DNA from: a virus
Taxonomy: Duplodnaviria > Caudoviricetes
Virus record (IMG/VR): IMGVR_UViG_3300050343_000164
Coordinates: 1-53,887 of that record
DNA length: 53,887 nucleotides
Reading direction: 5' to 3' (one strand)
Positions 37,941 to 53,352 of this stretch are shown here, one piece after another (position 1 is the stretch's first letter; each line of letters opens with the position of its first letter). The notes below the pieces were generated by a model. It made no database searches. It was given only the letters and a program-made list of their open reading frames with translations, and was not told the DNA's origin. Both the position numbers and the translations under genes were made by a program.

Positions 37941-38158
37941 AGCAGAGAGGCTGTGTACTCCTCGTTTTGACGAGCTTGGAAGATATTTTCTGCAGCGGCT
38001 TCGTCCGCCCCGACAAGCGTCTGTGCGAGCGCTTGAAAGTAGTCGATGTCGGTAGCGAGACCTTCGGCACCCGCCTGTACAGACCTAGAAAAAACCTCCG
38101 TAAGAGGCATTTCTCGCACCAGTCTGCCATTTTCAATTTTTGGGGGTTTAGAGGCCAA
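37883..38158 (-). CDS. Probable N-terminal fragment of the large internal virion protein
   Basis: TTG start; protein-like up to ...NEEYTAS, then out of frame with MEGVES. Confidence 0.55.
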   Translation of the reverse strand: MASKPPKIENGRLVREMPLTEVFSRSVQAGAEGLATDIDYFQALAQTLVGADEAAAENIFQARQNEEYTASLLWRALSPLRSFSISRLLAV

Positions 38159-38163
38159 CGTCT

Positions 38164-38805
38164 TTATTCCTGACCGGGTGCGTTTTTCGCTATGACCGCG
38201 AGCTCAAGTATCCTGTAGACGTTCTCATTCAAATCTTTTAGTACGCGTGGCCTGACCATTTCGTCAAGTGTCTCGCCATAGGCGTCGGTATATGTAAAGC
38301 CGATTATTAATCCTTCGCTGTTAAACTTCCCATTGACTCGTGCGAGGTCAAAGTCGGTGGTGTCTATGTTCTCGCCCGTAGCATCACCCCGAAATAACGA
38401 TTCCCACGTCTCGGATAAACCCCCCTCCTCTTCCGCTGCATAAACAGCCAATATCTGACTAGCTATAGGCTTGAGGGCATTCAGCGCGTACTTAGCTGCG
38501 CTTGGATTCTTTGCAAAAAATGGCTCTGCTTCTACAAAGAACTGAGTAAGGGCAGGCATAAACCTCTCAACAGCCTGTGGGTCTAACACGCCATCTTCGT
38601 CTCGTTCATCATTAAACGCTGTTACCAGATCGCCCCCGATCTTTGATGCGGTAGCTGCATCGGTAAAGTCTTGGGTTTTTATAGCTTGCATAAGACGGGC
38701 GAAGCTAGTGTCTGCGTTCTGCTGTTGTATAGCCGCCGTAGTTGCGTCTTTCGCGGACATTGATGTTGTGCCTGTCTCAAAGAGATTGTTAATTTCAGCC
38801 AGCAT
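38164..38805 (-). CDS. Internal virion protein, C-terminal part
   Basis: The frame is open upstream of its ATG (GGTSNDRAPDRATQRQ) and overlaps the previous ORF. Confidence 0.6.
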   Translation of the reverse strand: MLAEINNLFETGTTSMSAKDATTAAIQQQNADTSFARLMQAIKTQDFTDAATASKIGGDLVTAFNDERDEDGVLDPQAVERFMPALTQFFVEAEPFFAKNPSAAKYALNALKPIASQILAVYAAEEEGGLSETWESLFRGDATGENIDTTDFDLARVNGKFNSEGLIIGFTYTDAYGETLDEMVRPRVLKDLNENVYRILELAVIAKNAPGQE

Positions 38806-40175
38806 CTGTCGTTGAGTAGCGCGGTCTGGAGCCCTGTCATTACTTGTGCCACCGACATGGCTGCGATCATGGCTACCCGAGCCATGGCACGGTCTTTACT
38901 GTTTTTAAGGCTTGCCAAGTCAGCGACAGTTTCCACGCCTGCTTGCTGCAGCTGTGTTGCTATCGCCGCTTGCTCCTCTGGCGAGACAGTAATTTCGCCG
39001 GACATAACCTTCTCTACTACCTGATCAGTCGGCATGTCCTTGGTTTGTTCAACCACTTTATCGACAGACGCCTGCTGCTCAGGGGTGTCCATGGTGAATG
39101 TTGCGGGTTCGAGTTCGGCCATCTCTGCTTTCAAGCCGGTAATCTTGTCTTTGCGCTGTTGAATAGCGGGATGCTCAAGCTCCCCGTTCGCTCCCTGGCG
39201 TCGTGGCTTAACACCACGTTCCTCGAAGTCTGCTTGAACTTGGGCAAGGTCGGCCTCCGCAGCTGCTATTTCGTCAGGTAGCTGACTTCTTCGCCGCTCA
39301 GCGCGTGTGTTGTTTAGTCTTTCGCGAGCGTCGAGCCCCCGTTGCTCTTGCTCGCCCATAACTGCAAGCGGACCTCGGCTTGGGCGCGGGGCTTGCGTAG
39401 GCTCCTCATCAGGAGTCATAGTATTTTCTGGCGCTGGAGTTTCGGATTCAGCGGGCGGCTCACCGGATGCAACGGAATCAATAAACTTCTGCTTCTCAGC
39501 TGGGTCCTTAATCTGTGCAGCGCCTGCTACTACGCCTCTTCTTGTTGCTATTTGTTGCTCAGGGGGCAAGCCTGCTATCGCTTCTTCAACCCCCCTGTAG
39601 TCAGCAGTCACGATGCCTTCAGCCGCAAGTGCCGTAGCATTATCAAATTTCGTTTGATACCTCAATGTGTCCGCTAAGGCTTCATTCGTTACGTCGACAA
39701 ATTGTTCAAGGGTTTTAAATGAAGCAACTGGAGCATTCGGGTCGTTACTGCCGTCCAACGTGATAACGCCAAATGAGCCGTCCTCATTGGAAGTCTGAAT
39801 AACCCATTCGTCGTTTGGTCCTTTGGTCCACCTAGCATCTACTACTGAGGGATCAATTAAGCCATTCGATCTGGCAATACCAAGCGCCACACTTCTAGCC
39901 TGAGCATCGCCAGCTTCTAGCCCCGCAGCTAATCTTTTGCCGTCGATGCGAGTTTTAGTGTCGTTCCAAAACCCCGCGTTATCAATTAACGTCATGGTGC
40001 CATTCGCGGCGTCTACGTCTAGTCGCTCTCGTTCTTCAGTAGCTAGACGCGCCCCCTGTTGTTCGTTGAGGACAAGCTGCCGTTCCGCGCGTTCGCTAGC
40101 TTCGCGCCTAGCAAAAGCCGCGCTGCCCTGAGCCGCGCCCATGCCAAAACCTGCTAACCCATCTAAAACGCTCAT
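38679..40175 (-). CDS. Internal virion protein, N-terminal part
   Basis: AAGGA RBS; GLAGFGMG start; protein-like until about 38855. Confidence 0.65.
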   Translation of the reverse strand: MSVLDGLAGFGMGAAQGSAAFARREASERAERQLVLNEQQGARLATEERERLDVDAANGTMTLIDNAGFWNDTKTRIDGKRLAAGLEAGDAQARSVALGIARSNGLIDPSVVDARWTKGPNDEWVIQTSNEDGSFGVITLDGSNDPNAPVASFKTLEQFVDVTNEALADTLRYQTKFDNATALAAEGIVTADYRGVEEAIAGLPPEQQIATRRGVVAGAAQIKDPAEKQKFIDSVASGEPPAESETPAPENTMTPDEEPTQAPRPSRGPLAVMGEQEQRGLDARERLNNTRAERRRSQLPDEIAAAEADLAQVQADFEERGVKPRRQGANGELEHPAIQQRKDKITGLKAEMAELEPATFTMDTPEQQASVDKVVEQTKDMPTDQVVEKVMSGEITVSPEEQAAIATQLQQAGVETVADLASLKNSKDRAMARVAMIAAMSVAQVMTGLQTALLNDRCWLKLTISLRQAQHQCPRKTQLRRLYNSRTQTLASPVLCKL

Positions 40176-40184
40176 AGTTTTTCC

Positions 40185-40796
40185 TTACAGTAAAAACGCG
40201 CCGAGAATTGCTGCCGACCCTAAACTACCAATCAGCCCATAGGTCTGAGCTTTTGAGGCGGCTTTAGCTTGCGTATATGCGTTGTTCCGAGCAGTTGCGT
40301 CGGCAGCGGCAGATCCCATCTGCTGCAGAGACGAGCGATTTACGCCCTGCCCAATATTAATAAGGTCCGATAATGTTCTCTGGTTCGCGTCGCGTTGTGC
40401 TAAGCGGGCATCCGAGATAGATTGAATCCCACCGAGCGTGTTACTGCGCCCCAGACTACGCTGCATCTCTTGCTGCTGCGCTGGTGTAAGACTTGCGCCG
40501 TAGCGACTGATATTGCGCTGTGCAACATCACTTGCCATCTGCTGGGCACCCGCCACGTCCTCGCGCGCCTGATCGATGAGGCCAGTATCATTTTGCGCTT
40601 GATTGATCAGATCCTCTTCAAACTGCCCGTATTCATTGACGTAGTCGAGATACTGCTGGCGAGTCATGTCAGCGTAGGTCTTGTCGGGATCGCTCACTGT
40701 TGGGATCTGCCCGTTTGTATAGGGGTTTCCGCCAGTGTTGGGATTGCCGCCGCGCCTTATAGCCGCTACATCTGGGATGTTTCCGATTGACATCAC
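40185..40796 (-). CDS. Internal virion (pilot/ejection-like) protein
   Basis: Gln/Ala-rich, with a C-terminal Gly-rich hydrophobic helix. Confidence 0.7.
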   Translation of the reverse strand: MMSIGNIPDVAAIRRGGNPNTGGNPYTNGQIPTVSDPDKTYADMTRQQYLDYVNEYGQFEEDLINQAQNDTGLIDQAREDVAGAQQMASDVAQRNISRYGASLTPAQQQEMQRSLGRSNTLGGIQSISDARLAQRDANQRTLSDLINIGQGVNRSSLQQMGSAAADATARNNAYTQAKAASKAQTYGLIGSLGSAAILGAFLL

Positions 40797-41383
40797 TATA
40801 CCCCTCTTGGAGCCGTTGGAGTTTCCAACACATCAAGCGTGTTGGTGATTAATTTGCTCGCAGTGCCGTCTCCAAAATAACCTGCTTCATTGGCTCCCCT
40901 AACCGTCGCGCCTAGCAACTGACCGCCAGCTTTGTACTTAGCAGCGGAAACCTCCTGGTTGGCTCTCGCTTTTGTTAATGCCTCAGATCTGCCAAGTCGG
41001 GAAGCTTGTGCTAGGCCAACTTGTGCCTCTCCTGCTTGCCCCCTAGCGGTCGCAAGAACGCCGGTCTTCATGCGGTTCTCGATGCCTTTGGCGGCGGCAG
41101 TAGCTTGACCTAACTGACCTTGTATCGCAGCGGAACGATCGCCCGCTGCATTGACTCTCTGCGTCTCTTGAAAGCCTCCACCGGACAGCGCTTGCTGCGT
41201 GTCGGCGTTGGCCCTGCCTCGCAAGGTAGTCTTGTAATCGTCAGTCATAGACTTGTCGCGCATCTGCTTTAGCAGTGGGTCGTACAACTGTTTAAAACGG
41301 TCGTACTCCGCTTTCGCCACGCCCGCTGAAACTTTTTCAGCTTCTGAGGGCTTGTAGTCTTGCTGTTTCGGTCCGCATCCCAT
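40796..41383 (-). CDS. Internal virion (pilot/ejection-like) protein
   Basis: Ala/Gly/Gln-rich helical protein following the GNAT gene. Confidence 0.7.
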   Translation of the reverse strand: MGCGPKQQDYKPSEAEKVSAGVAKAEYDRFKQLYDPLLKQMRDKSMTDDYKTTLRGRANADTQQALSGGGFQETQRVNAAGDRSAAIQGQLGQATAAAKGIENRMKTGVLATARGQAGEAQVGLAQASRLGRSEALTKARANQEVSAAKYKAGGQLLGATVRGANEAGYFGDGTASKLITNTLDVLETPTAPRGV

Positions 41384-41385
41384 AT

Positions 41386-41901
41386 CTAAACTCTCTTCAC
41401 CATTGTTGCCCCTGCGTATTCATAGCCCGAGGCTTCTAGCTTCTCTTCAGTGCGCCGTGTCTTCACGCGGCTCGTTATATCAAACACCAGCGCTTTCGCA
41501 GACTCGTGAATGGCCCAAGACTCAAAAGCAGCCAGCAAAAAAGAAAAACCTCCATGTTCACGCGCCTCTGGCAGGACAAAACAAGTTTCTTCATACGCGA
41601 CCAAGTCTTCGCCAAAAAAGGTTGGGCCAAGCGACGCAAACAACGCGCCGACCGGGGTGCCGTGGTGCTCAAGCAGAAATATTCTTTTGTCTGGCCTAAT
41701 CGTATACTCATCAAATCGAGCCCAAAGCTTCTCTTCATTTAAGTCCATGTGTGAGTACACTGACTCACGCCACATAACCTCCCCGATCAACAACATTGTC
41801 GGGAAGTCTTCGCGCTGCGCTTCCCTAACAAGCAGCCCGCTACTTGCTTTCTCTTCCGTATCGGTTTTTTGAGTGCTTCGGGGAGCGGTACAACCCTCCA
41901 T
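41386..41901 (-). CDS. GNAT-family acetyltransferase-like protein (start uncertain)
   Basis: VREAQREDFP, VGALFA, FVLPEAR..G..LL..FESWA, GY. Confidence 0.75.
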   Translation of the reverse strand: MEGCTAPRSTQKTDTEEKASSGLLVREAQREDFPTMLLIGEVMWRESVYSHMDLNEEKLWARFDEYTIRPDKRIFLLEHHGTPVGALFASLGPTFFGEDLVAYEETCFVLPEAREHGGFSFLLAAFESWAIHESAKALVFDITSRVKTRRTEEKLEASGYEYAGATMVKRV

Positions 41902-42529
41902 AATTCACCTTCCTGGCTATTGGCATATCTTCATGGCGCGATCTGCGCTCGGCTTCTTGAATACTCTGCTGAAAAAGGGTGCCGTATACCTGTGCGCCAC
42001 CAAAATCAGTCCAATCCTTACTGGGCATCCGCAACAGGCGGAACAGTGCCCCCTGTACAATTGCGTCGCGGTAATCAGTCATAACGCCGTCATCACAGGC
42101 GGTAGACGTATATGTTGGCTTCAGTTGAGCTCGCAGGATGACCGCCTGTGACTCTGTGGCGTTTGGGACTGGAGCGAGCCAGAACGCGGCCTGCGTCACC
42201 TTCACAAAATACTTTGGCGTACCCGCATTACTCGCGTCCCGCCACTTCGGTAAACGCTGCTCTAGCAACCCCGTAGAGATAGGCTCTAAGTCGTGCCCTT
42301 GATGCGTTACCCACAGTATTTTATGCGTGACCGCCCCGCTTGGTGGCTCCAAGTCGTACTCGTAAATGTTAGCGACCGTTGTGACAGGGTCTAGCTCCTG
42401 CTGATACACAGGCGCTTTCTCGCACAGCTCGATTGCCGCTGCGCGGATGTTGTTTTCTATTAGGGTGTCAGGACAGCCCGGCACCATCGGCATTATTTCA
42501 GGGAGCAGCGTCTCGTAAGTTGTAGCCAT
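41840..42529 (-). CDS. Head-tail adaptor / tail tubular protein
   Basis: VPGCPD...AAIELCE...GALFRLLRMP..WTD; position after the capsid gene. Confidence 0.7.
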   Translation of the reverse strand: MATTYETLLPEIMPMVPGCPDTLIENNIRAAAIELCEKAPVYQQELDPVTTVANIYEYDLEPPSGAVTHKILWVTHQGHDLEPISTGLLEQRLPKWRDASNAGTPKYFVKVTQAAFWLAPVPNATESQAVILRAQLKPTYTSTACDDGVMTDYRDAIVQGALFRLLRMPSKDWTDFGGAQVYGTLFQQSIQEAERRSRHEDMPIARKVNYGGLYRSPKHSKNRYGRESK

Positions 42530-42531
42530 AG

Positions 42532-43212
42532 TTATACTCCCGGCCTTGCGCTATCAGCGTTAGGGCTCGTCACGACATCGATCTGCCCCTTACCCGCAAC
42601 AGCCGTCGTAAACAACTGGTAGTGACCACCTGCGCGCTGAGCGTTACCTGCGTACTCAGAATCTTTCATGAAAGCCATGTATAAGACGTAATTCATTACG
42701 GCTGTGCCGAAGATGTCAGGTATTGCAAGGTTGTCACTTGCGCCGACAGTCGCTGGGTTTGCTGAGTAAACGATCTCGATGTAAGCGTTACCACTTACCC
42801 CAGGATAGACGTAGTAGTTACGGGGGTTCTCATCGTTATAAACATAATGCTTCACTTGAGTCCCGTGTTTTGCATCCCCAGTTACAGCCGGGTCATGCCA
42901 GCTAGGAGTCTGCGCGTCCAGAATCTCCTCGGAAACTAGTCTAATAGTTCTGCCGCCCGTTCCATTTGACGCAGCGGACATGTTTCGAACAACCCGAAGC
43001 AACCGATTGCCTGAGCTAGGAATGTCCTGCTTAGTACCAGTGGCAAGTGTGACGGTGGTGTTAGTAGCAGTAGAGTCAGGTTTAATCAGCGCAATTTCAC
43101 GCTGCGCGTCATTAACCCACAGTATTAACTCAGCCTCGGGCCATCGAATGCCACTGGCGTCCTGTATCACCGATTGCACTCTGTCTATAACGCTTGCTAC
43201 TGTGACACTCAT
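42532..43212 (-). CDS. Head-tail adaptor (DUF6682-like)
   Basis: QD..GIRWPEAEL..WVNDAQREI...YYVYP...YMAFMKDSEYA. Confidence 0.75.
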   Translation of the reverse strand: MSVTVASVIDRVQSVIQDASGIRWPEAELILWVNDAQREIALIKPDSTATNTTVTLATGTKQDIPSSGNRLLRVVRNMSAASNGTGGRTIRLVSEEILDAQTPSWHDPAVTGDAKHGTQVKHYVYNDENPRNYYVYPGVSGNAYIEIVYSANPATVGASDNLAIPDIFGTAVMNYVLYMAFMKDSEYAGNAQRAGGHYQLFTTAVAGKGQIDVVTSPNADSARPGV

Positions 43213-43226
43213 ATAGACCCTTCGCT

Positions 43227-43580
43227 TTAAGAGTTAAGAGCTTGCTCCCAAGCCTCTTCACGTTCTGTCGTAGTGACAGAACGCCCTGCATACTTGTTTA
43301 CGACGGTAGCTTTTGGCGTTCCATCTGCTTTGAAATCACCAGGGTTCGCCGCCTCGATAATATCTTCCATAACTTGAGCCAACGTCTTCTCGGCCCCGGT
43401 CTCTTCTTCCGGTGCAGCTACCGGCGTTTCTTTTAATGAGTCCGACACGATGTCCGCGCCCATAACCAATGCTGCTTTCCCGATTTCCTCGCCTACTTCA
43501 CGAGGTACGCCAGCTTCGAATAGCACTACGGCCCCAGACAGAGTGGCGACTCTGAGAGGCTCCTTGCAAATAATCTTCAT
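43227..43580 (-). CDS. Hypothetical head-associated protein
   Basis: DFKADGTPK...EREEAW; in the late operon. Confidence 0.7.
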   Translation of the reverse strand: MKIICKEPLRVATLSGAVVLFEAGVPREVGEEIGKAALVMGADIVSDSLKETPVAAPEEETGAEKTLAQVMEDIIEAANPGDFKADGTPKATVVNKYAGRSVTTTEREEAWEQALNS

Positions 43581-43588
43581 GAAAAATC

Positions 43589-43972
43589 CTATTTAGTCTT
43601 AGTGGTGTATTTTTTGCCGTTCCAAGTAAAAGTCTTGTAGCCCTTTTTTCTTGCGGCTGCGAAAGCAGATCTAAAGTCCTTCGCCGCTGTGGAATCTTTT
43701 CTAAACGTCTTATAAGTGCCAGCCTTGGTCTTCACGCCGCCCGTAACATCTTGTGACTTGCTTTGCGCGACAGCCCTAGGATTACGCTTGCCCCCTTTTG
43801 TTTCGGGTGCCGGTGATGCATCGTAGTTACGATTAGTCTTTGTATTTGCACTTCCAGAGCTAGCAGCAGCTTTTGCAATTCCGCTGGAGTACCTCTTGGG
43901 TGATCTTGGTTCAACCCTCGCCTTAGAACGAGTAGCTGCTCTTCTTTGTCTGCGTCTAGTACCAGGATTCAT
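43589..43972 (-). CDS. Very basic hypothetical protein
   Basis: AAGGA RBS; R/K-rich; ends FRSAFAAARKKGYKTFTWNGKKYTT. Confidence 0.7.
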   Translation of the reverse strand: MNPGTRRRQRRAATRSKARVEPRSPKRYSSGIAKAAASSGSANTKTNRNYDASPAPETKGGKRNPRAVAQSKSQDVTGGVKTKAGTYKTFRKDSTAAKDFRSAFAAARKKGYKTFTWNGKKYTTKTK

Positions 43973-43984
43973 ATAGCTATCCTT

Positions 43985-44006
43985 AAAAAAGCCCCCCGAA
44001 GGGGGC
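43985..44006 (-). terminator. Rho-independent terminator after the capsid gene
   Basis: GCCCCC-TTCG-GGGGGC-TTTTTT. Confidence 0.9.
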
Positions 44007-44014
44007 GATCATTA

Positions 44015-45160
44015 TTACTGAGCGGTATCGAGGCAGATGACTCCAAAGTCTTCTACGCCGCCGTTTACGTCGCTGTTGTACTTAGGCTTGCGAAGACCGA
44101 AGATCTTGCCTACCGAAATACCCAGCTGGTTACCGTAGTCAAAGGTATCTTCTACGATATCGGGCAGACCAATGTCAGCCATAGCCAGTGCTTGAGCGCC
44201 GACAAACAGGGCTCGTGCTCCGTCGATGTTTGCGTCCGCGCCCCACTTGTAGCCAGCTGCACCAGCGTTGCTAGAAGCACCGGACGTTGCGCCTTCGGTT
44301 GAAAAGACGTGTCGGAACTCATGGACCATGACGCCATCAACCATCAGGCTAGAGGAACCAGCAAACAACTCGTTGTTGGGTCCACGAACACCTGCGTTAC
44401 GGACGTTAGCTAGGAAGTCTGAGTCCAGCTTCAGACTAGCCATCTGCTGTGGAGTAACAAACAGGTGGAACACCTCTTGGTTACCCGCAGCTCGCATACC
44501 ACGAATAAAGTTATCCTTGGCGTAAGCCTTCAGATTCACAATGTGGCTATAAGCAAGCTTGTCCGTAGCTGTGATTGCAGTCGTGTCACCAGCTAGAAGG
44601 TTTGAACCGCTGATGCGTCGGTGCCGGTTGGTGGTAGGAGCAGAGACATCTGAAGCAAACTCCAGGTCTACCAGCTCGTGTCCAGCAGTACCGGAAGTAG
44701 TTCGCAATCCGCCGTTAGTCTTCGACGTATAAGCAACACCTGACAACGTCAAGAACGCCAGCTGGTCCATACGGTCAGCCATGGCATATGCCAACATGTC
44801 GCGTGAAGTCTCACGGAAGTTAACGATCGTCTTCTGATCGGCAACTCGGCCAGCAATACGGTTCGCGAAGCGCAACTGATCCAGCTCAATGGTGATGTCA
44901 TACGCGCGGAGGGCTTCTTCGTTACCTTCCAGAGTATTGTCACCAGTGATACCGTCTCCAGTCATGTCAGCGAGCAGCGTCAAGTTAGCCTTGGTGCCTT
45001 TCTCCGACTTGGTAAGCTCAGTAATCCGCTGAACAGCAGCGTTCTGACCAGTACCAGCGAACTGGTTAATGAAAGAAGCGTTACGAGCAACGCGCCAAAA
45101 ATCACGGGACCACGCCTGAAGCTGGTCACCCGAGAGTGTTCCAAAGTTAGTATTAGCCAT
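44015..45160 (-). CDS. Major capsid protein (N4-gp56/DUF4043-like)
   Basis: AAGGAG RBS; LTKSEKG..A..TL, GDNTLEGNEE, IELDQLR, FDYGN, EDFGV; terminator downstream. Confidence 0.9.
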   Translation of the reverse strand: MANTNFGTLSGDQLQAWSRDFWRVARNASFINQFAGTGQNAAVQRITELTKSEKGTKANLTLLADMTGDGITGDNTLEGNEEALRAYDITIELDQLRFANRIAGRVADQKTIVNFRETSRDMLAYAMADRMDQLAFLTLSGVAYTSKTNGGLRTTSGTAGHELVDLEFASDVSAPTTNRHRRISGSNLLAGDTTAITATDKLAYSHIVNLKAYAKDNFIRGMRAAGNQEVFHLFVTPQQMASLKLDSDFLANVRNAGVRGPNNELFAGSSSLMVDGVMVHEFRHVFSTEGATSGASSNAGAAGYKWGADANIDGARALFVGAQALAMADIGLPDIVEDTFDYGNQLGISVGKIFGLRKPKYNSDVNGGVEDFGVICLDTAQ

Positions 45161-45372
45161 TTTTTGGCTCCTTTAGTGCATAGATAAAAGTTGATGGCAC
45201 AGCGCCACCGTTTTTAGCCGACTTAAAGGAGCGGCTAATCCGTATCTCCGTATCGTGGAGCGACGAACTAGCGCTTATTAACGAGGGGCGACCTCGGCTT
45301 GTTTTACGCCTGTGCAGGCGAAGACGTTTTTAGCGTGACCGACACGATCAGATATCGTTCTGATGGACGAAC
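45161..45372 (-). ncRNA. Candidate structured cis-regulatory RNA leader of the capsid gene
   Basis: Seven consecutive stem-loop/pseudoknot elements in ~210 non-coding nt, including a loop complementary to the capsid SD. Confidence 0.65.
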
Positions 45373-45383
45373 CTATCATGTAT

Positions 45384-45398
45384 ATTAGCGTGGGTAAT
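45384..45398. promoter_or_regulatory. Palindromic operator-like site (1 mismatch) upstream of the capsid leader
   Basis: ATTAG CGTGG GTAAT; the minus strand continues CTAATAT. Confidence 0.75.
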
Positions 45399-45415
45399 AA
45401 TATGAAGCAAGCCAT

Positions 45416-45646
45416 TTATACCCTGTAACTACCACGATTCTTCTTCCTGCTTACAACAGTGGTGTTGCTGCTTTTGTTGTTTCGTGGATTACCATCTTTA
45501 TGATGCACGTCTTTCTTGTCACCTTTTTTAACCTTTCCTTTTGCTAAAGCAGCTCGGCGCGCTTTGTTGCGGGCGGCACGACGCTTCTTCTCCGCGTCTG
45601 TCTTGTGATACTCATACTCTTTTTTGTAGTTACGCGTGTTAGCCAT
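45416..45646 (-). CDS. Small basic HNH-like protein
   Basis: Start MANTRNYKKEY after GAGG; DVHHKDGNPRNN..N......NR. Confidence 0.75.
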   Translation of the reverse strand: MANTRNYKKEYEYHKTDAEKKRRAARNKARRAALAKGKVKKGDKKDVHHKDGNPRNNKSSNTTVVSRKKNRGSYRV

Positions 45647-45650
45647 GACC

Positions 45651-46046
45651 TCACCTGTGTCGAGATGTTTTCTTTGCAATCTTCTTCGGCTGAGAAGAAA
45701 ACTGCTTCCCTTTGGCGGTGTCAGCACGCTTCTTACGGGACGTAGCGGCGTATTCTTTCTTACTTAGAGACTCACGGGCTTTTTTCGGTAAGTACCGCTC
45801 GCCGGTAGCCTTGCTGCCCTGGGTGCTGTTCTTCCCGCTCTTAGTGCCCCACTTCTCTTTTGTCCACTTTGAAAGAGACTTCTGAGCTTCTGTCTTGGGG
45901 CCTGTATAACCCCCACCGGATTTTTTATACCGCTGCGTAGCCAGTTGCGCCTTCCTAGCGCTCCACTGCCCCGGCTTCCCGCCTTTAGAACCAGCTTTTA
46001 CTGATGCAACGATGCGCTTCCATTTCGGCTCATCTTTTCGGGCCAT
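45651..46046 (-). CDS. Very basic protein (DUF5872-like)
   Basis: AGGAG upstream; GSKGGKPGQWSARKAQL...GGGY...SLSKWTKEKW...GERYLP. Confidence 0.75.
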   Translation of the reverse strand: MARKDEPKWKRIVASVKAGSKGGKPGQWSARKAQLATQRYKKSGGGYTGPKTEAQKSLSKWTKEKWGTKSGKNSTQGSKATGERYLPKKARESLSKKEYAATSRKKRADTAKGKQFSSQPKKIAKKTSRHR

Positions 46047-46050
46047 TGGT

Positions 46051-46170
46051 TCAGTAGCTCCTGCGCTTGGCCTTGGCTTTGGGCTTAGCCTTTGCCTTTG
46101 CCTTGGCCTTAGCTGCCGCTGCGCGTCCTGCTTTCGTGTACGGATACTTCTTTCCACCTACGTTTGGCAT
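46051..46170 (-). CDS. 39-aa Lys/Ala-rich protein (not in ORF track)
   Basis: GGGAG RBS; MPNVGGKKYPYTKAGRAAAAKAKAKAKAKPKAKAKRRSY fills the gap between its neighbours. Confidence 0.75.
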   Translation of the reverse strand: MPNVGGKKYPYTKAGRAAAAKAKAKAKAKPKAKAKRRSY

Positions 46171-46172
46171 AG

Positions 46173-46484
46173 CTAGCTCCCTTTTTTCCACTTGTTTGAG
46201 GGTGATTTAGTCTTGCTGGGTGACCATTTGACCTTGTCGGCCCAATACGCGGCTGACATCTTTCCTTTAGCGATGTTTTTACCGTGACGTGACTTAAATG
46301 CCTTCCTCTGCCCCGCCGTTTGGTTGGTTTTGACGCCCTGTTGACCAAAACGAATGGTTTTGACCTGATCACCTTCCTTCGCCACCACGATGTGCGACTT
46401 TTTCGGGTGAGACGGGGTGCGTTTCGGCTTGTTGAAGCCAGATACACCCGCTCGCTTTAGTCGAGAGTCTTTTTCACTAGGCAT
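46173..46484 (-). CDS. Very basic phage protein
   Basis: FNKPKRTPSHPKKSH.V.AKEG...IRFGQQG...FKSRH...SAAYWA; TAATG coupling. Confidence 0.8.
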   Translation of the reverse strand: MPSEKDSRLKRAGVSGFNKPKRTPSHPKKSHIVVAKEGDQVKTIRFGQQGVKTNQTAGQRKAFKSRHGKNIAKGKMSAAYWADKVKWSPSKTKSPSNKWKKGS

Positions 46485-47515
46485 TACAAGAGATCTCCTC
46501 GCAATCGTTTGATGGTTGCATCAGGAAGCGCGTTAAACTCGTCTTCCGTCATGTTGCTAATGTCCAACGCCTTCTCCCCGCGTGCAGCAGAGCTCTCCCC
46601 AGGTAACTCGGGCGGTTGCGACTTAGCTGCTTTGAGCTTTTTGTTTACCTCGGCCCGCTTTTTGGCAACTTCGTCCTGCATAGGAGCCGCTGTTTGCGTC
46701 AAAGTGGACTCCTGCGCGACATCAGTAACCAAATCGTGGTCCTTAATGACGAAACTGGCAGCTTTTGACAGTGCGTCTACCGCCTCGAAGCCCTGAACGA
46801 TGAATGCGTCGCGCAAATCGATGACTTCTTGAGTGAAATCGGCGTTATATTCGGCGGCGTTCTGATCAAACACCGGGAAATTAGCCTCTAGCTCGTTCGC
46901 AGCAGCCTGTAACGCGGTCGCCTGTGCGTTTTGCGACACTGTTTGCTGCATCTTCTGGCCCATGTCGAACTCAAGCTGGGTTTTTTCGGCGGTACGGATC
47001 TGCTGTCGGAGCTGCACAGCCTCTGCTTCCTTGCCGTCGAGCAGTAAGTTCATGTACTCGCGCTCTTTCGCGTCAAAGTCATAGGAATCAGGCGCATCCG
47101 CAGCGGGTTCTTGCGCTTTCTTCATGTCCTCAACCTGCTTCTGAAGCGCTTTTTGCTTCGCAAGCACCTCATCTAGCCGCGATTTCGGCACCATGGGCTT
47201 ACTAGTAGTAACGTCGGGCTCCTGGGCGGGCTCCGGCGCTGCTTCTTCAGCAACAACTTCTTCAGTTTCCTCGGCTACGGGCTCCTCTTCGGCTGCCGTT
47301 TCCTCTGCTTCTTCGGCTTCTTCGGCTTCGGCGACTACCTCTTCCTCGACCGCTTCCTCAACCTCTTCGGCTTCGGCAACCGGCTCTTCCGTGGGCTCAT
47401 CGCCCAAACCGAAATTCAGATCAAGTGTTTCATTCTGCTCTGTGGCTTTATCGGCACCGGGCATAGCATCAAAAACGGTGTCGAACTGATCGGTTGGGGT
47501 ATCTTTCTTCGCCAT
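46484..47515 (-). CDS. Capsid scaffolding protein
   Basis: Acidic N-terminus, VPKSRLDEV, coiled coil, MTEDEFNALP..KRLRGD end; lies between portal and capsid genes. Confidence 0.8.
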   Translation of the reverse strand: MAKKDTPTDQFDTVFDAMPGADKATEQNETLDLNFGLGDEPTEEPVAEAEEVEEAVEEEVVAEAEEAEEAEETAAEEEPVAEETEEVVAEEAAPEPAQEPDVTTSKPMVPKSRLDEVLAKQKALQKQVEDMKKAQEPAADAPDSYDFDAKEREYMNLLLDGKEAEAVQLRQQIRTAEKTQLEFDMGQKMQQTVSQNAQATALQAAANELEANFPVFDQNAAEYNADFTQEVIDLRDAFIVQGFEAVDALSKAASFVIKDHDLVTDVAQESTLTQTAAPMQDEVAKKRAEVNKKLKAAKSQPPELPGESSAARGEKALDISNMTEDEFNALPDATIKRLRGDLL

Positions 47516-47526
47516 AAGGCAATCTC

Positions 47527-49689
47527 CTATTGGGGGTTACGAAAATTCGGTACATCTGTTTGCTTCGGACGGGCTGCTTGCTTCTTGGCTGATGTCTGCA
47601 TAGCCGTAGCAGCCATACGCGTTGCAGCATTCGTTTCCGACTGACTGCGACGTGTCTCGTTTGTAAGGTCAGCAAGCTCGCGTCGTAACATCAGCTCCTG
47701 TTCCTTCATACTCATCTTGCCTTGCAGCTCAGCGACTCTGACCTGCGGATCAACCTCGGCGATATCCTGAACCTTGGCAGCGTTGAGTGCGGCTTCGGTC
47801 TGCGTCTTCTTAACGTCTGCGTCGAGCTGCGCGATCTCAAGCTGCAACTTCTGAATAGCCATCTGTTGCTGCATCGCCATAACCTCGGCCTGCTCCGGTG
47901 TAGGCGGCTCAGCACCAGTAATCTGACGGATACGCTTAGCGAGCTCACCCTTCTTGGCGAGGTGGCTATATTCAATAATCGCGTCATCAGGAATAGCCAC
48001 GCCCACTTGGCGAAGGTTGAGGGCTTCAGCGAACTGAACCTCATCAAACGAGTCGCGCGCAGGTGCAGTAGCAATAACTACGTCGTACTCACCAAGGGTC
48101 AAGTCATTGAGAATCTGACCTTCGGGGGTCATCTCGTTAACTACCATAGGCTCTCTAGGTTTCAGCGGGTCACTGTCGTCTGTGACCATAATGATGCGCT
48201 GCTCGGTATAGAACGCTTGCACCAGATCGAGCACCTTTTCGGCTAGGTACTGTCGGGACTTACGCAAGTTATCTAGCGGCACCTGAATCATTACCACGCC
48301 ACGATTCTGCTTGGCTTGTATAGCTACGCCCGACACTTCGGCGCTGTCTGATCCCAACATGCTGTCGTTGATGCCAGAAATCGTCTTAATGTTGAGCGCT
48401 GCCTTCTGGCTGATACGGTCTAAGCCGGTCGGGATCTGGTTGGGTTGGATCTTTGTCGGCGGTGATGAGCCACGGTTGTATTCGACAACCAGGCCCGTCT
48501 CTGCGCCATGCTCTTCCAAGTCGTCAGCGGACATACCTACCAGCGACCCGCTCTCTACCATCCAGCCACTATTAGCTGTGGTATTAACGATATGCAGCTC
48601 TTGGCTGGCGATCTTGTTTAGCTGCTCCTGCGGTGAGAGCAAGTTTCGCACCATGCCGAATGGTCGCCCTCGGCGGAAATACGCGAAGAAAGGCACGATG
48701 GTGAGATCGTTATACGGGCTCCAGTCATCATGCAGCACGATGTGGTCGCATGTCACAGTCCACCTGACTCGCCGCTTCACCTTACTAATAATGTCTAGAC
48801 CGTACTGCTTGGCGAACTTCTTGGCCTTAGCGTCAGACCAGTTCTCTGGTACATCTCTCGTGTCGCCTGTATTAGGGTCCACGTAGCAGTCAACACGGTG
48901 CATGCGTTTGTGCTGGCGCTCGATGACTCGCAAGGATCTGACGTTGCGGTACTCGTCTTCGCCGGGCACACCTGCGCCGAAATAGTCGTCTGCAGAGTCT
49001 GTATCACCGAAACGATTCTCCTCGTACTCAATGGAATCCCTGCCGAATCCAGACCCGTTCTCAGCAATGAAGCGCAAATCCTCGGCCTTCTTCTTGCCGT
49101 ACAGCTCTTCGATCTCGTCCAGAGTCATCCACTTAGTCTCGAATACTTCGTTCCAGCTCTTGGGGTCTGAGTCCTTGGCGTCTGGGTCAATCAGAATATC
49201 GAGTGGGTCTTTGGCGGTTATGCGAATCTCGCCTTCAACGTGATCGCTGAAGTCCATGCGGACATCAAAATAGCCACGGCCATCGAGGATCAAACCGTCA
49301 CTAAATACCTGCTGCTCGACCCAATCTAACTTGTTGTTGTCAGCAATCTGCATGTACAGCTTGGTCAGGGTCTGGGCAACGTCCATTTCTCCTGCACGGC
49401 GAGGCTTAAACTGCACGTCTGCTCGGCGTGTGGACTGCTCGCCTAGTACCGTATTAACAGTTGGCAAAATTGTATTAATAGTAAGAGCTGGTCGCCCTTC
49501 ATTATCTAGGGCATGCAGATCATCCAAGTCCCACTGATCGCCGCGATAGAAGGCATCGCACTTCTTCGCCATGTCGATATATTCAAGGTGGCCGTTATCA
49601 CGCGCTCGGATATAACGATCCCACTGCTTAGAAGCTACTTCCTGTTGCTCAGCCGCCGTCATCCTTGACAGTTTCTTTTTATAACTCAT
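47527..49689 (-). CDS. Portal protein (P22-like)
   Basis: FYRGDQW, GRPALTIN, GMVRNLLSPQEQLNK, SGVAI, GEYDV; directly after TerL. Confidence 0.9.
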   Translation of the reverse strand: MSYKKKLSRMTAAEQQEVASKQWDRYIRARDNGHLEYIDMAKKCDAFYRGDQWDLDDLHALDNEGRPALTINTILPTVNTVLGEQSTRRADVQFKPRRAGEMDVAQTLTKLYMQIADNNKLDWVEQQVFSDGLILDGRGYFDVRMDFSDHVEGEIRITAKDPLDILIDPDAKDSDPKSWNEVFETKWMTLDEIEELYGKKKAEDLRFIAENGSGFGRDSIEYEENRFGDTDSADDYFGAGVPGEDEYRNVRSLRVIERQHKRMHRVDCYVDPNTGDTRDVPENWSDAKAKKFAKQYGLDIISKVKRRVRWTVTCDHIVLHDDWSPYNDLTIVPFFAYFRRGRPFGMVRNLLSPQEQLNKIASQELHIVNTTANSGWMVESGSLVGMSADDLEEHGAETGLVVEYNRGSSPPTKIQPNQIPTGLDRISQKAALNIKTISGINDSMLGSDSAEVSGVAIQAKQNRGVVMIQVPLDNLRKSRQYLAEKVLDLVQAFYTEQRIIMVTDDSDPLKPREPMVVNEMTPEGQILNDLTLGEYDVVIATAPARDSFDEVQFAEALNLRQVGVAIPDDAIIEYSHLAKKGELAKRIRQITGAEPPTPEQAEVMAMQQQMAIQKLQLEIAQLDADVKKTQTEAALNAAKVQDIAEVDPQVRVAELQGKMSMKEQELMLRRELADLTNETRRSQSETNAATRMAATAMQTSAKKQAARPKQTDVPNFRNPQ

Positions 49690-49690
49690 G

Positions 49691-51355
49691 CTATGCACTC
49701 ATCGCTGATTTTGAGGCACGCTCTGGCCCCACCATGTGTTCCAGTCGATCTCGCCAAGAGGGCGGCTTTACGACTGGTGCTTGGTACGTCGAAAACTCGG
49801 ACATCATCAGACCGAGCCATGCAAGTGCATCGACTTGGTCATCGTGGACCCCATTGGGGAAACGCAGCATCTCTGCTATCAGTGGTCCAGTGAAAACTTC
49901 ATTCCTGGGAAAGAACACCATCCCCTGCTGCATACGTCCCTGTATCGCTCTAGCTCTTGCTTCCTTATCGCGGCGTCCGGTCTTCAAGTCCTTGAAGTAC
50001 GCCTCGTACAAACCACGCTCTCGGACACGTTTCTCTAGAAACGGCCCCAGTGCCATCTCGATATGGCCCTTTTCGATTCCTACGATGCTGGGCTTCCACG
50101 ACTCGTAGAGGTCTAGGATCTGCTCCACCAATTCAAAGCCATCGAACTTCCCGCGCACTACATCAATTACAAACAGTCGATCCTGCTCGTCTACGCCGAT
50201 AACCATGCCGACTGAGAAGTCGTTACGATCGCGCTTACCAATCGCCAAGTCCCATGCTGCGTAGTAGCGCATCTGGTTGTAGTCGAGATCCTCTGGGTCG
50301 TAGTACTGGATCATCTGACGTGTGAAATAGTCACCGTCATCGGCCACCGGATTCTGCTGGTAGAGGGCCGACCAATCTCTCGGTCCAACGGCTCTCTGTA
50401 TCTGTTCGAGAGCTGGCACGTCGTAGCGTTCGGGATGCAGGGCCTCTCCGTACTGCCTGAACTCTTCGTCTTCTTCTGCGATGGCTGGGTATTTAACGAC
50501 GGCCCACTCGTCTCCGCCTTCCGCCCCGGCTTTGAGTAGTCGTCCAGCCAGATCGTCATCGTGCCACCGAGTGAGAATGACCAGTACGCCACCGCCAGGA
50601 GCGAGGCGTGTATAAGCAGTCGACGTATACCAGTCCCAGTTAGCGTCGCGATTATTCTGACTTTCAGCGTCTTCACGGTTCTTTACAGGATCGTCGATGA
50701 CAAGGACGTGTGCGCCCTTACCAGTGATACCGCCACCGACACCAGCAGCAACGTAGCCACCGCCTCCAGTAGTAAGCCATGCCTCCGCACTTTGGGAGTC
50801 TTTGTCCAGACGCGTCTGAAAAGCGGTTTTATATGTTGGCTCACGAAGGAGTTGACGGACTTTCCTACTAAAGCCCATCGCAAGCGAACCCGAATACGAA
50901 CAAGAGATAAATTCATGCTCAGGATGCCTGCCGAGATGCCAAGCCGGGAACGAAACTGACGCCAGCGTACTTTTTCCATGGCGAGGTGGCATAAAGAGCA
51001 TAAGTCTTGGACTCTTCTTTTCAGCCACGTCGCGACTGAACTGCTCCAGCCGTTGGCAGATGTCTTTATGGACCCAACCAGCTTGGTAATCGGCGTTAAA
51101 CCGCTCGACAAAAGGGAGGAGACGCTTTCGTGTGAGGATGCGTAACGCCAGCTCTGCTTTAGCTTTTTGTTCAAGTGTGCCCTCCCTCGGCTCCGGTTCG
51201 TAGACTTCTGTCTCTGAAAGTTGTGGTGCTGGTAGCGCTTCTGCCATAGCGGCTAAGCAGTAAACGCAGGTGTCGATTATGTCGTTTGCAAACAGCGTTT
51301 CTGGCTGCAGTGTTTTGCAGTTAGAACACTCACGTTTAATAATTTCATTCGGCAA
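49691..51355 (-). CDS. terL: Terminase large subunit
   Basis: MPPRHGKS, ITGKGA, LVIDDP, TRWHDDDL, AWDLA, HDDQVDA. Confidence 0.95.
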   Translation of the reverse strand: MPNEIIKRECSNCKTLQPETLFANDIIDTCVYCLAAMAEALPAPQLSETEVYEPEPREGTLEQKAKAELALRILTRKRLLPFVERFNADYQAGWVHKDICQRLEQFSRDVAEKKSPRLMLFMPPRHGKSTLASVSFPAWHLGRHPEHEFISCSYSGSLAMGFSRKVRQLLREPTYKTAFQTRLDKDSQSAEAWLTTGGGGYVAAGVGGGITGKGAHVLVIDDPVKNREDAESQNNRDANWDWYTSTAYTRLAPGGGVLVILTRWHDDDLAGRLLKAGAEGGDEWAVVKYPAIAEEDEEFRQYGEALHPERYDVPALEQIQRAVGPRDWSALYQQNPVADDGDYFTRQMIQYYDPEDLDYNQMRYYAAWDLAIGKRDRNDFSVGMVIGVDEQDRLFVIDVVRGKFDGFELVEQILDLYESWKPSIVGIEKGHIEMALGPFLEKRVRERGLYEAYFKDLKTGRRDKEARARAIQGRMQQGMVFFPRNEVFTGPLIAEMLRFPNGVHDDQVDALAWLGLMMSEFSTYQAPVVKPPSWRDRLEHMVGPERASKSAMSA

Positions 51356-51881
51356 CAGATGGCTCCAAGTAAGCCGTTTCTTTACCCGCGATCTTGATCA
51401 GCTCTTCATCAGACAGGCGTTCCAGCTGCTTAGCCGTTGCGTTTATCTGCACATTTACTTGAGCTTGCGGTTCCTGCTGCACGAGGCCGTGCAACTTAAC
51501 CAGTGAATCTGTTGTGTTCTTCATCTCCGTGGCATTTGATGAAGCGGTGTACGCCTCCATATACATGCCGTGAGCATTGGTAATTGTGAACTTCACCGTC
51601 TCCCGCGCCTGTTCGCGGAAGTAGTCGAGCGCTTTTTTCATCTCGGGGCGACGCATGGCTTTCAACGCGCAGTCATAGTTCTTGTAACCTGCAGCACGAG
51701 ACCCTGCCCTGATGGACATTCCTGATGCAACCAGCATGACGAGCTTTTCCTGCTGCACGGTTAATGTTCCATGATGCACGCCCATGTAAGGCATATGCGC
51801 TTGGAATTCGGTGTGAGTAAGATCAACCCCGTCTTTAATGGAGTCGATGCTTTCCTCCTGTAGTTGCGCCCGTGATTTCAT
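51345..51881 (-). CDS. terS: Terminase small subunit
   Basis: LTVQQEK...RAAGY HTH-like segment; LERLSDEEL; upstream of TerL. Confidence 0.75.
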   Translation of the reverse strand: MKSRAQLQEESIDSIKDGVDLTHTEFQAHMPYMGVHHGTLTVQQEKLVMLVASGMSIRAGSRAAGYKNYDCALKAMRRPEMKKALDYFREQARETVKFTITNAHGMYMEAYTASSNATEMKNTTDSLVKLHGLVQQEPQAQVNVQINATAKQLERLSDEELIKIAGKETAYLEPSVAE

Positions 51882-52113
51882 TTTTTAAATCGTCGTCCAA
51901 CCAAACAAACATAGGTGCGCGTTCACCCAGGTCAGCTATATCTAGCTCCTGTAGAAACGCCCACAACGAGAGCTCGTAACCACGGCTCTGCAATAGTTCT
52001 TCAACGCGTGCGGCATCGTACACAAGTACCTCTTGGCCGCTTTCTCTTAGTCCGATTCCAACAAGGGCTTCTAAAAGCCCCTCTACCGCATACGCTTCAG
52101 TGTGATCGGACAT
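51835..52113 (-). CDS. Hypothetical protein
   Basis: GLLEALVGIG...LVYD...GERAPMFV. Confidence 0.7.
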   Translation of the reverse strand: MSDHTEAYAVEGLLEALVGIGLRESGQEVLVYDAARVEELLQSRGYELSLWAFLQELDIADLGERAPMFVWLDDDLKNEITGATTGGKHRLH

Positions 52114-52121
52114 ACCTATAT

Positions 52122-52136
52122 ATTACCCCCACTAAT
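52122..52136. promoter_or_regulatory. Palindromic operator-like site (1 mismatch)
   Basis: ATTAC CCCCA CTAAT, intergenic ahead of the packaging genes. Confidence 0.75.
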
Positions 52137-52138
52137 AT

Positions 52139-52615
52139 TTAATCACAAGCGTAGTCGTGTATTGTCTTGACCCACCACCAGAACATGTCAGTGGACAAGG
52201 TGTGTCGCATAATGTTGATTCGATACGCAACAAGACGCACGTTCTCCCTGGAGTAACCTTCGTCGTTGTTTAGGCGGTCTATAGATGCGTTGAACTCTTT
52301 CTTTCCTGACCCGTCGAGGTGATGAGTCAGCGCTACACCTGATACCGCACACTTGCCATCCTGCAAATCCCACTGCTGCAACACTTCTTCTGCGGTCAAC
52401 GAGAAACTGTGTGTGTTCCTGCGCGTGCTTCTTAGCTTCGCGAAAAGATTCCTGAGATATGCCTCATGCGAGCCGCCCATGTTTTCGTAGCGTTTGCGGT
52501 TTTTCTGCAGCATGCGGCATGGCGTACATTTCTTGCGCCATGTTCCAGTTGGGTATTGCTCAAATTTAGTGTCTGGTAGCTTTTCTTTACACGTCGTACA
52601 GATCCGTAATCCCAC
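52139..52615 (-). CDS. Zn-ribbon plus His-Me-finger (HNH-like) endonuclease-like protein
   Basis: CTTC...CTPC; QDGKCAVSG...SIDR....GYSRENVRLV...N. Confidence 0.7.
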   Translation of the reverse strand: MGLRICTTCKEKLPDTKFEQYPTGTWRKKCTPCRMLQKNRKRYENMGGSHEAYLRNLFAKLRSTRRNTHSFSLTAEEVLQQWDLQDGKCAVSGVALTHHLDGSGKKEFNASIDRLNNDEGYSRENVRLVAYRINIMRHTLSTDMFWWWVKTIHDYACD

Positions 52616-52884
52616 GGCCTGTCCCTCAAAGTAGCTTACCTAGGAAGATAGGGCCTTAAAAAAATATTGCAAAAAAAAAATTTGAAAACTATTTCTGAAT
52701 CGCTCACGCATTGTCTCCCTTGCCGGGTTGTCCCGCTCCCCTTTCCCCTTTTCCGTTTTTGGAACCTTGTTTCATGTCGATATACATGAACCTTGTCTGT
52801 CAGTAACCCCTTTCGACGCTCGCTTCGCTCTCGCCGCTCATTAATGTTTGTGAGCTATGACGCTCAATTACTTGGAGATACACC

Positions 52885-53085
52885 ATGCTTGGAGATTACT
52901 CAGTTACCTTCACCGATGAGGTGCTCAACCACGACGCTCCCGATCAACTGGCCCTTCCGTTTGGTCAGCTTGAATCAGAGTTCAACGACTACGCAGACTT
53001 CTTCAGTGCTTGCTTCATGCACTCCGACGACCCGCTGCAATCCTTCATCCGCCATGAACTCAACTGCATGGAGCATAACTCATGA
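52885..53085 (+). CDS. Hypothetical early protein
   Basis: GGAG RBS. Confidence 0.7.
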   Translation: MLGDYSVTFTDEVLNHDAPDQLALPFGQLESEFNDYADFFSACFMHSDDPLQSFIRHELNCMEHNS

Positions 53086-53342
53086 AGCAGCTCGAACTGG
53101 ACCTCACAAACTGGGATTACGTGGACAACTGGCCTCACTCAGCAGACCCTTACTTCGAAGTTGACTGTGAAGAAGAAGTGGTTATCGAGAGAGCTATCGC
53201 TGTCTGTTACATCATCGAGGGACACGACAAGCTCTTTGAGACCCGCGAAGACGCCGAGCAACACCGCGACTTCCTCTGCATGACCTACGGTTACCAAGAC
53301 GGCTGGCCTATCAGCGCCGTTTCATTCGAATACGCTCAATAA
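53082..53342 (+). CDS. Hypothetical early protein
   Basis: GGAG RBS; ATGA coupling. Confidence 0.7.
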   Translation: MKQLELDLTNWDYVDNWPHSADPYFEVDCEEEVVIERAIAVCYIIEGHDKLFETREDAEQHRDFLCMTYGYQDGWPISAVSFEYAQ

Positions 53343-53352
53343 GGAGATCATC

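Follow-up and report, generated by a model that had tools for sequence, protein, structure and literature searches.

In the IMG/VR record IMGVR_UViG_3300050343_000164, a virus of the class Caudoviricetes whose entire 53,887 nucleotides (nt) were analysed and are here termed the window, the gene for the major head (capsid) protein lies on the minus strand and is preceded by a large structured RNA leader. A hairpin in this leader, with a loop complementary to the Shine-Dalgarno (SD) region of the capsid gene, had been singled out in an earlier reading of the letters (hereafter the sequence-only reading) as a small, stand-alone platform of the kind found in riboswitches. Comparison with related phages indicates that the hairpin is real but that it does not stand alone: judged from the alignments, it is helix P6 of a pseudoknotted RNA leader of about 165 nt that precedes the capsid gene, and thus one helix of a far larger structured RNA. 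A covariance model of this RNA (R1) recognizes the window copy with 183.4 bits (E 6.8e-60) and finds a single copy in the 53,887-base record, which is estimated to be 92% complete. As far as sequence comparison can show, the leader occurs only before capsid orthologues of one clade of uncultured marine phages. The mechanism rated likeliest, although tentatively and with somewhat less than even confidence, is that of a cis-acting leader of the capsid messenger RNA (mRNA) whose P6 loop helps to mask the SD.

Capsid loci were collected from IMG/VR, where 599 stretches matched and 80 of these were fetched (81-100% protein identity). A total of 176 loci were pooled and yielded 105 unique leaders, and 93 unique cores were assembled into the alignment (A2) on which R1 was built. 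The conserved portion comprises about 165 nt, from just past a promoter-like element to the hairpin, and neither the sequence further upstream nor the linker to the SD is conserved. An exact 16-mer from P6, ACGGATTAGCCGCTCC, was found in 119 viral stretches; in 110 of these a capsid homologue begins 74-103 nt past the motif, 6 others are truncated by the end of the contig, and the last 3 match by chance and have no hairpin. A stricter pattern, CCGAGGTCGNNCCTCGT followed by a fixed 8-nt gap and CGCT, recovered only 28 stretches. R1 itself matches 95 of 96 further capsid loci, the exception (L373) having just 34 nt upstream of the gene. The best named relatives of the capsid protein are those of the Pseudomonas phages KPP25 and phiR18, at 53% identity. 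KPP25, phiA008, and AP1, with capsids of 44-53% identity and leaders of their own of 130-200 nt, gave no R1 match at E<=10, which suggests that the RNA is confined to the closer clade. Further, a search of Rfam 15 with positions 45100..45480 at E<=10 returned just two irrelevant weak matches (mir-1322 and IS009), the entire window gave 0 matches to Rfam 15 at the gathering thresholds, and a nucleotide search of a phage collection with positions 44900..45500 gave no match.

In bacterial and archaeal genomes the 16-mer has 109 exact matches, which is approximately the chance expectation for 596 gigabases. Among the 80 of these matches that were listed, two (L255 and L258) carry the RNA and a third (L253) is marginal at 16 bits. 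The RNAs in question (L255:5678-5869 and L258:1-115) are binned into a Dehalococcoidales metagenome-assembled genome (MAG) and a Verrucomicrobiales MAG on short or phage-like contigs, and the 7,547-base contig that holds L258 is also found as an IMG/VR record. Both contigs probably belong to phages and were swept into MAG bins; they provide no host or prophage assignment. It should be noted that a 45-amino-acid open reading frame (ORF; 45278..45415, minus strand) lies over the leader. It was not treated as coding, since the alignments show indels in other than multiples of three, including a 4-nt absence at its 5' end and insertions of 1-8 nt between P2 and P3.

Nine helices were scored on A2 (93 sequences). 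Standard pairs occupy 97.1% of cells as compared with 88.0% after shuffling, 21 of 41 pairs are changed on both sides, and the covariation score is 0.282 versus 0.117 for shuffled alignments (0 of 500 reach the observed value) and 0.03-0.04 for controls with slid partners. The consensus computed with RNAalifold has 17 of 31 pairs changed on both sides. A covarying, conserved structured domain, as is expected of a riboswitch, is therefore present upstream of the capsid start and comprises P1-P5 together with the pseudoknots PK1 and PK3 (Table 1). Covariation is clear in P1, P2, and P5 and is less pronounced in P3 and P4. PK1 takes the form CUUG/CAAG at the same position in two diverged leaders (L058 and L405). 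In PK3, pair 68-88 is GC in 58 sequences, AU in 25, GU in 9, and another combination in 1; the helix is 90.7% paired, and the third PK3 pair of the window itself is A-A. The loop of P5 repeats the ACGAUA of P1. A P5-loop pseudoknot analogous to PK1 (PK2) was considered and rejected, as compensatory changes are lacking and each of its pairs has 11-18 cells that do not pair. Likewise kept out of the model was a long-range CG/CG pairing that RNAalifold had put forward between columns 5-6 and 151-152; it shows no variation, and 2 sequences break it.

Table 1. Positions in the window of the capsid leader, its helices and signals, and the genes named with it.
Feature	Position	Strand	Basis or detail
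Conserved structured leader RNA, helices P1-P6 + PK1 + PK3	45373..45210	-	Covariance model R1, 167 positions
Module A, with P1 AUCAG/CUGAU (45364..45360 with 45351..45347)	45370..45347	-	5/5 P1 pairs change on both sides
PK1, 5'-terminal UCGU with P1-loop ACGA	45370..45367 with 45358..45355	-	Pair 7-16 UA:81 UG:8 CG:4, none unpaired
P2 hairpin CGUG/CACG	45346..45334	-	100% of cells paired; inner pairs GC:45 UA:32 CG:16 and CG:62 GC:30 GU:1
P3 hairpin CGCCU/AGGCG (45320..45316 with 45311..45307)	45297..45320 (span of P3 + PK3)	-	
PK3, P3-loop GCA with UGC just 5' of P4	45315..45313 with 45299..45297	-	Mutual information
P4 hairpin CGAGG/CCUCG	45296..45282	-	100% of cells paired; 3/5 pairs change on both sides
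P5 hairpin CUCC-ACGAUAC-GGAG	45260..45246	-	4/4 pairs change on both sides; 93.8% paired
P6 hairpin UUAGCCG / loop CUCCUUUAAGU / CGGCUAA	45238..45214	-	Sequence and covariation
P6 loop anti-SD 9-mer GCUCCUUUA	45232..45224	-	Exact complement of UAAAGGAGC
P7, variable spacer hairpin GGUGGC/GCCAUC	45209..45193	-	Hairpin prediction and covariation
SD region UAAAGGAGC of capsid gene	45175..45167	-	Exact complement of 45232..45224
-35-like hexamer TTGCTT	45410..45405	-	Conserved position
-10-like hexamer TAATAT	45387..45382	-	Conserved position; predicted transcription start ~45375
Major head (capsid) protein gene, 381 amino acids	44015..45160	-	phrog_334, E 6.1e-82
Integrase gene, far end of minus-strand block	18811..19857	-	phrog_1, E 7.5e-50

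At the level of single bases, the hairpin, its 9-nt loop element, the SD, and the small hairpin between them are all where the sequence-only reading had placed them and with the letters it had given. The plus strand reads gctccttta at 45167..45175 and taaaggagc at 45224..45232; in the order of the coding (minus) strand, the region runs ...ACGGA UUAGCCG CUCCUUUAAGU CGGCUAA AAAC GGUGGCGCUGUGCCAUC AACUUUUAUCUAUGCAC UAAAGGAGC CAAAAA AUG, with the start codon at 45160..45158. A second complementarity had been missed: UUAGCC of the P6 5' arm can also pair with a GGCUAA that overlaps the start codon (AUGGCUAA), so that RNAfold pairs GAUUAGCCGCUCCUUUA with the SD and start region. The fold of 45260..45140 has a predicted energy of -34.3 kcal/mol (z -2.63), and 3 of 200 shuffles are equally good. 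Perfect 9-nt inverted repeats whose arms are separated by 3-120 nt occur 27 times in the window, as against 27.0 +/- 4.5 in 30 dinucleotide shuffles, and hence the 9-mer alone is not convincingly beyond chance. Repeats of this kind in which an SD-like arm is followed by ATG number 2 in the window versus a mean of 0.3, with at least one in 23% of shuffles. The sole other such repeat in the window lies at 21584..21623 on the minus strand, its arms starting at 21584 and 21615. On the comparative data, the case for P6 as a genuine feature comes from its conservation in relatives and not from the 9-mer.

Of all helices P6 is the least variable, being 98.6% paired with one pair changed on both sides (GCCA/UGGC in L069). 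In L401 a hairpin stands at the same position with two compensated pairs (GUCU/AGAC) and an 11-nt loop, AUCCAUUAAAA, that is clearly homologous to CUCCAUUAAGU. The hairpin that the sequence-only reading had drawn attention to is thus a conserved element, with a stem kept through compensatory changes in two lineages; this compensation, together with the homology of the loops, indicates that selection acts on the hairpin through its structure and on the loop through its letters. The constant letters of the loop are (C)UCC on its 5' side and, less strictly, AAGU on its 3' side, and the 1-5 letters in between are A/U-rich and variable (UUU, AU, AA, UA, AG, AGU, UGAA, and others). Of 18 loop types, 15 retain the 5' CUCC, the exceptions being CACC, UACC, and ACUCC at the closing base, and the loop of L401 carries AUCC in its place. 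Moreover, the linker from P6 to the AUG measures 54 nt in 35 and 53-55 nt in 60 of the 105 unique leaders, and it shrinks to 34-37 nt in two leaders without P7.

Invariance of this kind could also reflect recognition by a protein. P6, and perhaps both ACGAUA loops, could be operators for a phage or host RNA-binding protein that represses or activates capsid translation, in which case P6 would be held constant by protein recognition rather than by SD pairing. Autoregulation by T4 gp32, the coat-protein operators of RNA phages, and Mu Com/mom are examples of such control. A P6 sequence that is invariant while the other helices covary freely, an ACGAUA common to two loops, and a fixed spacing to the start would all be accommodated, and the available excerpts of PMC10690425 name the gp32 pseudoknot leader as a precedent and describe candidate leaders upstream of phage structural genes. 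The small basic ORFs adjacent to the leader belong to phrog_4590, phrog_14910, and phrog_7595, families without known function. No candidate protein was identified, and operator control of this type is considered distinctly unlikely.

Pairing between the P6 loop and the SD is predicted to be strong in the window, where the loop-SD duplex amounts to -13.6 kcal/mol and the probability that the GGAG of the capsid SD is unpaired, P(unpaired), is 0.008, the 4th lowest among 37 SD-bearing starts. In nearly all members of the family, CUCC of the P6 loop stands opposite the GGAG core of the SD. For the 105 leaders, P(unpaired) of that core averages 0.09, and in the minimum free energy structure of 71 it pairs with the loop or arm of P6. 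Matched loop and SD regions bind at -8.62 kcal/mol versus -8.16 kcal/mol when permuted (permutation p 0.0016), the 69 combinations compared being related and non-independent. The exact 9-nt anti-SD that gave rise to the sequence-only reading holds for the window and its close kin but is not a family trait, given that 28 of the 69 loop/SD combinations have no pair beyond the 4-nt core; in homologs, the complementarity consists of a (C)UCC:GGA(G) core in nearly all, with an extension beyond it that is often absent. Long complementarities unlike that of the window occur elsewhere, including GCUCCUAA with UUAGGAGC (L045 type), CUCCAAA with UUUGGAG (L127), and UCCAUUAAA with UUUAAU-U-GGA (L401). 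A fair summary of the alignments is that a core contact of 3-4 nt appears conserved and extended pairing intermittent, with the window at the strong end. The 9-nt match of the window would then be a lineage-specific strengthening of the 4-nt core contact rather than a conserved feature. As a side observation, P5 of the window and its close kin is itself CUCC/GGAG, a second CUCC and GGAG that could cross-pair with the SD and the P6 loop; the letters of P5 differ in other lineages.

If the leader acts in cis to mask the SD, the P6 loop would present (C)UCC for pairing with the SD core GGAG some 45 nt downstream, P7 would serve as a compact spacer, and the resulting contact would lower or gate 30S binding at the capsid start. 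The choice between P6 and a competing helix would in turn be set by the P1-P5 domain, or sensed by it via a ligand or protein. The candidate competitor, here termed P5ext, joins GCGCUAGUUCGU with ACGGAUUAGC and draws on part of the P6 5' arm; it is predicted to occupy four bases of that arm and to leave CUCC free for the SD. In pseudoknot-free folds of full leaders, P6 has a median probability of 0 and exceeds 0.5 in 1 of 105, and the competing fold is approximately 5 kcal/mol more stable than the P6 fold (enforcing P6 costs a mean of 4.9 kcal/mol, a family-wide prediction). P5ext is compatible with 74-93 of the 93 sequences per pair. Its changes are one-sided only (GU to AU in 24 sequences and UG to CG in 13), with no double changes. 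Two alternative partners for the P6 arm would account for an invariant P6 amid drifting neighbours, although this is suggestive only. Translation of the capsid gene that can be switched, for example by being kept off in the lysogen, as the sequence-only reading had proposed, is plausible.

A number of observations weigh against masking of the SD by P6. Co-variation of loop and SD in related phages, which the sequence-only reading had suggested as a check, gave no sign for the SD flank at the level of independent loop types: 10 of 18 loop types bind better with their own SD regions (Wilcoxon p 0.20). Extension beyond the core averages 1.04 nt versus 0.89 nt when permuted (p 0.15), and shuffling of the flanks shows only a mild excess of complementarity, with a mean z of -0.57 and p<=0.05 in 12.5% of combinations. 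Changes to the core on the loop side (CACC in the L070 type, UACC in the L075 type, AUCC in L401) and on the SD side (GGAA in the L029 type, GGAU in L350) are all uncompensated. The SD must also match the ribosomal RNA and cannot vary freely, so the missing compensation on its side is weak evidence. By chance alone, it would not be unlikely for one of six or seven loops to contain four nucleotides complementary to GGAG. The folds are nearest-neighbour, pseudoknot-free predictions, and they leave the SD largely paired even when P6 is enforced (P(unpaired) 0.21), indicating that P6 is not its sole predicted masker. Additionally, the lineage of L058 and L405 (L058:1335-1488, L405:234-384) retains P1-P4, where changes are compensated; the 3' portion of its leader has diverged and is without P6, P7, and the UCC before the SD. 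L007 (335-493) shows a clean deletion of about 60 nt that removes P6, P7, and part of the linker and joins ...ACGGAU directly to AUGCACUAAAGGAG, while its near-twin L008 keeps them; L007 is either a natural variant without the anti-SD hairpin or an assembly artefact. These leaders suggest that the 5' domain works, or at least persists, without the anti-SD hairpin. To these points may be added the weakness of the promoter hexamers in the window and the nature of the RNA data, both of which are described next.

The leader is preceded by what pattern and position indicate to be a conserved sigma-70-type promoter. Of 79 unique upstream stretches, 73 show the arrangement TTGnnn-N16-18-TAnnnT, nearly all with a spacer of 17 nt; TAATAT serves as the -10 in 55 of the 73 promoter-bearing stretches, and the promoter ends 3-25 nt (7-12 nt in most leaders) before the first conserved CGU of the RNA. 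The hexamers of the window are weak, and a consensus scan called 0 promoter-like sites in 44800..45800; the argument for the promoter rests on conservation of its position. Marine metatranscriptome runs that hold the region amount to 24 rows, of which 17 are recorded as RNA, from 15 studies. These data are Logan contigs rather than reads, from which starts, ends, and expression levels are unreadable, and uncovered stretches in runs X2-X4 carry no meaning. In run X1, a contig covering 45216..45369 has a depth of 53.5 versus 5.4 for the adjacent contig 45372..45613, with capsid contigs at 35.1 and 21.1. In run X2, the capsid-side contig 44893..45245 has a depth of 35.9 versus 3.9 for the upstream contig 45367..45529. 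Because words shared among strains inflate contig depth, the depth step is just a weak hint of a transcription start near 45370. Contigs bridge P6 into the capsid gene in both runs (44937..45245 in X1 and 44893..45245 in X2).

The small hairpin P7, which in the sequence-only reading shortens the linker between loop and SD, is also real and covaries. In 103 of the 105 unique leaders a hairpin of <= -4 kcal/mol occupies this place, its 5' arm taking 48 different forms, and two lineages have no P7. As a G+C-rich hairpin with some U after it, P7 resembles an intrinsic terminator or attenuator, and the copy in the window was flagged as terminator-like by a consensus scan. Unlike such elements, the U tract of P7 is sparse (at least 5 U in the next 8 nt in just 18 of 103) and distant, the U run usually beginning 5-9 nt past the stem. 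P7 as an intrinsic terminator was accordingly rejected for most members. This bears on whether the element is instead a separate, trans-acting small RNA (sRNA) that ends at P7, with the C/U-rich loop as a seed against the SDs of other mRNAs and adjacency to the capsid gene a matter of synteny. A promoter of its own, the flagged hairpin with its U-containing tail in the window, and the somewhat greater depth of the leader contig in X1 relative to the capsid contigs would be in keeping with an sRNA, although that extra depth may come from related strains sharing conserved words. The RNA is always directly upstream of the capsid gene, with 74-103 nt from motif to start, is never elsewhere, and is single-copy per record; a proper U tract is missing after P7 in 85 of 103; and contigs from RNA libraries span the leader into the gene. 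With a fixed capsid context, no proper terminator, and bridging contigs in place of an own terminator and varied contexts, a trans-acting anti-SD sRNA was rejected as a candidate and is held to be highly improbable.

The leaders without P6 also bear on a role for the leader in which SD masking is not the main task. The leader could be a 5'-terminal stabiliser of the mRNA or an antitermination RNA that acts on the polymerase, with the CUCC-GGAG match incidental; as an antitermination RNA it would serve about 26 kb of downstream minus-strand structural genes. HK022 put and boxA/nut are examples of processive antitermination. Consistent with such roles, just a few bases separate the predicted start from the structured domain, P1-P4 persist in lineages without P6, a long block of minus-strand genes runs from 45160 down to 18811, and the extended loop-SD complementarity is not conserved. 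The window loop CGCUCCUUUAAG also resembles the boxA consensus, which would favour antitermination. A boxA/nut signal, which is single-stranded and GCUCUUUA-like in its consensus, was rejected on comparison of the family: GCUCC is conserved, but the letters that follow, the U-rich part of the boxA-like stretch, vary (UUUA, AUA, AAA, AGA, UAA, AGUA; within these UUU, AU, AA, AG, UA) and lie in the loop of a hairpin. Further, just 18 of 103 leaders have a U-rich tail after P7, which leaves no evident terminator for read-through; the constant distance from P6 to the AUG points to the translation start and not to the polymerase, and about 165 nt with two pseudoknots are more than mere stabilising would need. 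A stabilising or antiterminating leader is regarded as fairly unlikely.

Masking of the SD by the P6 loop invites comparison with translational riboswitches, several of which use a loop-to-SD pseudoknot as their expression platform. Like SD-sequestering riboswitches, the leader has an upstream conserved structured domain, a downstream C/U-rich putative anti-SD at a fixed distance, and predicted competing helices. Unlike them, it matches no Rfam riboswitch, its complementarity beyond 4 nt is not conserved, and the putative platform hairpin is its most conserved part, whereas the expression platforms of riboswitches are usually variable. Capsid genes are not known to be controlled by riboswitches. 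The leader of T4 gene 32 consists of a 5' pseudoknot and an unstructured A/U-rich stretch and mediates autogenous translational repression. The capsid leader is likewise a phage mRNA leader with a pseudoknot on its 5' side and an A/U-rich linker that is followed by the SD, but it is much larger, with six hairpins, and has an explicit anti-SD loop, and the gene regulated in T4 is that of a protein that binds single-stranded DNA. Literature searches brought up no report that this capsid family has a structured leader or an anti-SD hairpin; the closest source, PMC10690425, describes in its available excerpts candidate structured RNAs (csRNAs) from IMG/VR, five of which lie upstream of a major capsid domain. 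Like the leader, these csRNAs come from IMG/VR and are covarying structures located immediately before a major capsid gene, and in the same excerpts they differ from it in being described without a function or an anti-SD feature. The leader family is absent from Rfam and may be among the uncharacterised candidates of PMC10690425.

A further reading, judged unlikely, takes the leader for an orphan sensor resembling a riboswitch, or for an RNA switch responding to a protein, by which synthesis of the major capsid protein of a temperate marine phage is gated. The P1-P5 domain would then bind a metabolite or factor that reports host state or infection stage, and binding would decide between P6 and P5ext and hence whether the anti-SD loop releases the capsid ribosome binding site. 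Of all phage proteins the capsid protein is produced in the greatest amount, and late transcription is usually considered the level at which its production is regulated. That more than 100 environmental phage variants have, before the capsid gene and nowhere else, a large, conserved, pseudoknotted leader with a host-type promoter of its own and a loop complementary to the SD suggests that the capsid is under additional, post-transcriptional control. If the leader senses something, it would represent a novel regulatory RNA class and offer a way into the timing or silencing of virion production by uncultured temperate marine phages; a true sensor would be the first case of control of a virion structural gene by an RNA sensor. 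Even if the leader just tunes translation or stabilises the mRNA, it constitutes a well-defined new RNA family whose covariance model can be used for virome annotation.

As to the phage itself, the genes sampled (10 of about 60 ORFs) include those for an integrase, DNA polymerase, primase, helicase, and terminase. The integrase gene indicates that the phage is probably temperate. No RNA polymerase gene was found among the 10 ORFs sampled, which makes use of the host polymerase plausible, and no transfer RNA genes were found anywhere in the record (1..53887). Between a scaffold-like gene and the leader, at 45416..46484 on the minus strand, lie three small, very basic ORFs (103, 168, and 103 amino acids) that match the three function-less phrog families named above, and the ORF adjoining the promoter contains HHKDGNPRNN, which is taken here to resemble an HNH motif. 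At the far end of the minus-strand block, the SD-like site of the integrase gene, GAGGAAGACATG, has a P(unpaired) of 0.0, the lowest among the 37 starts examined.

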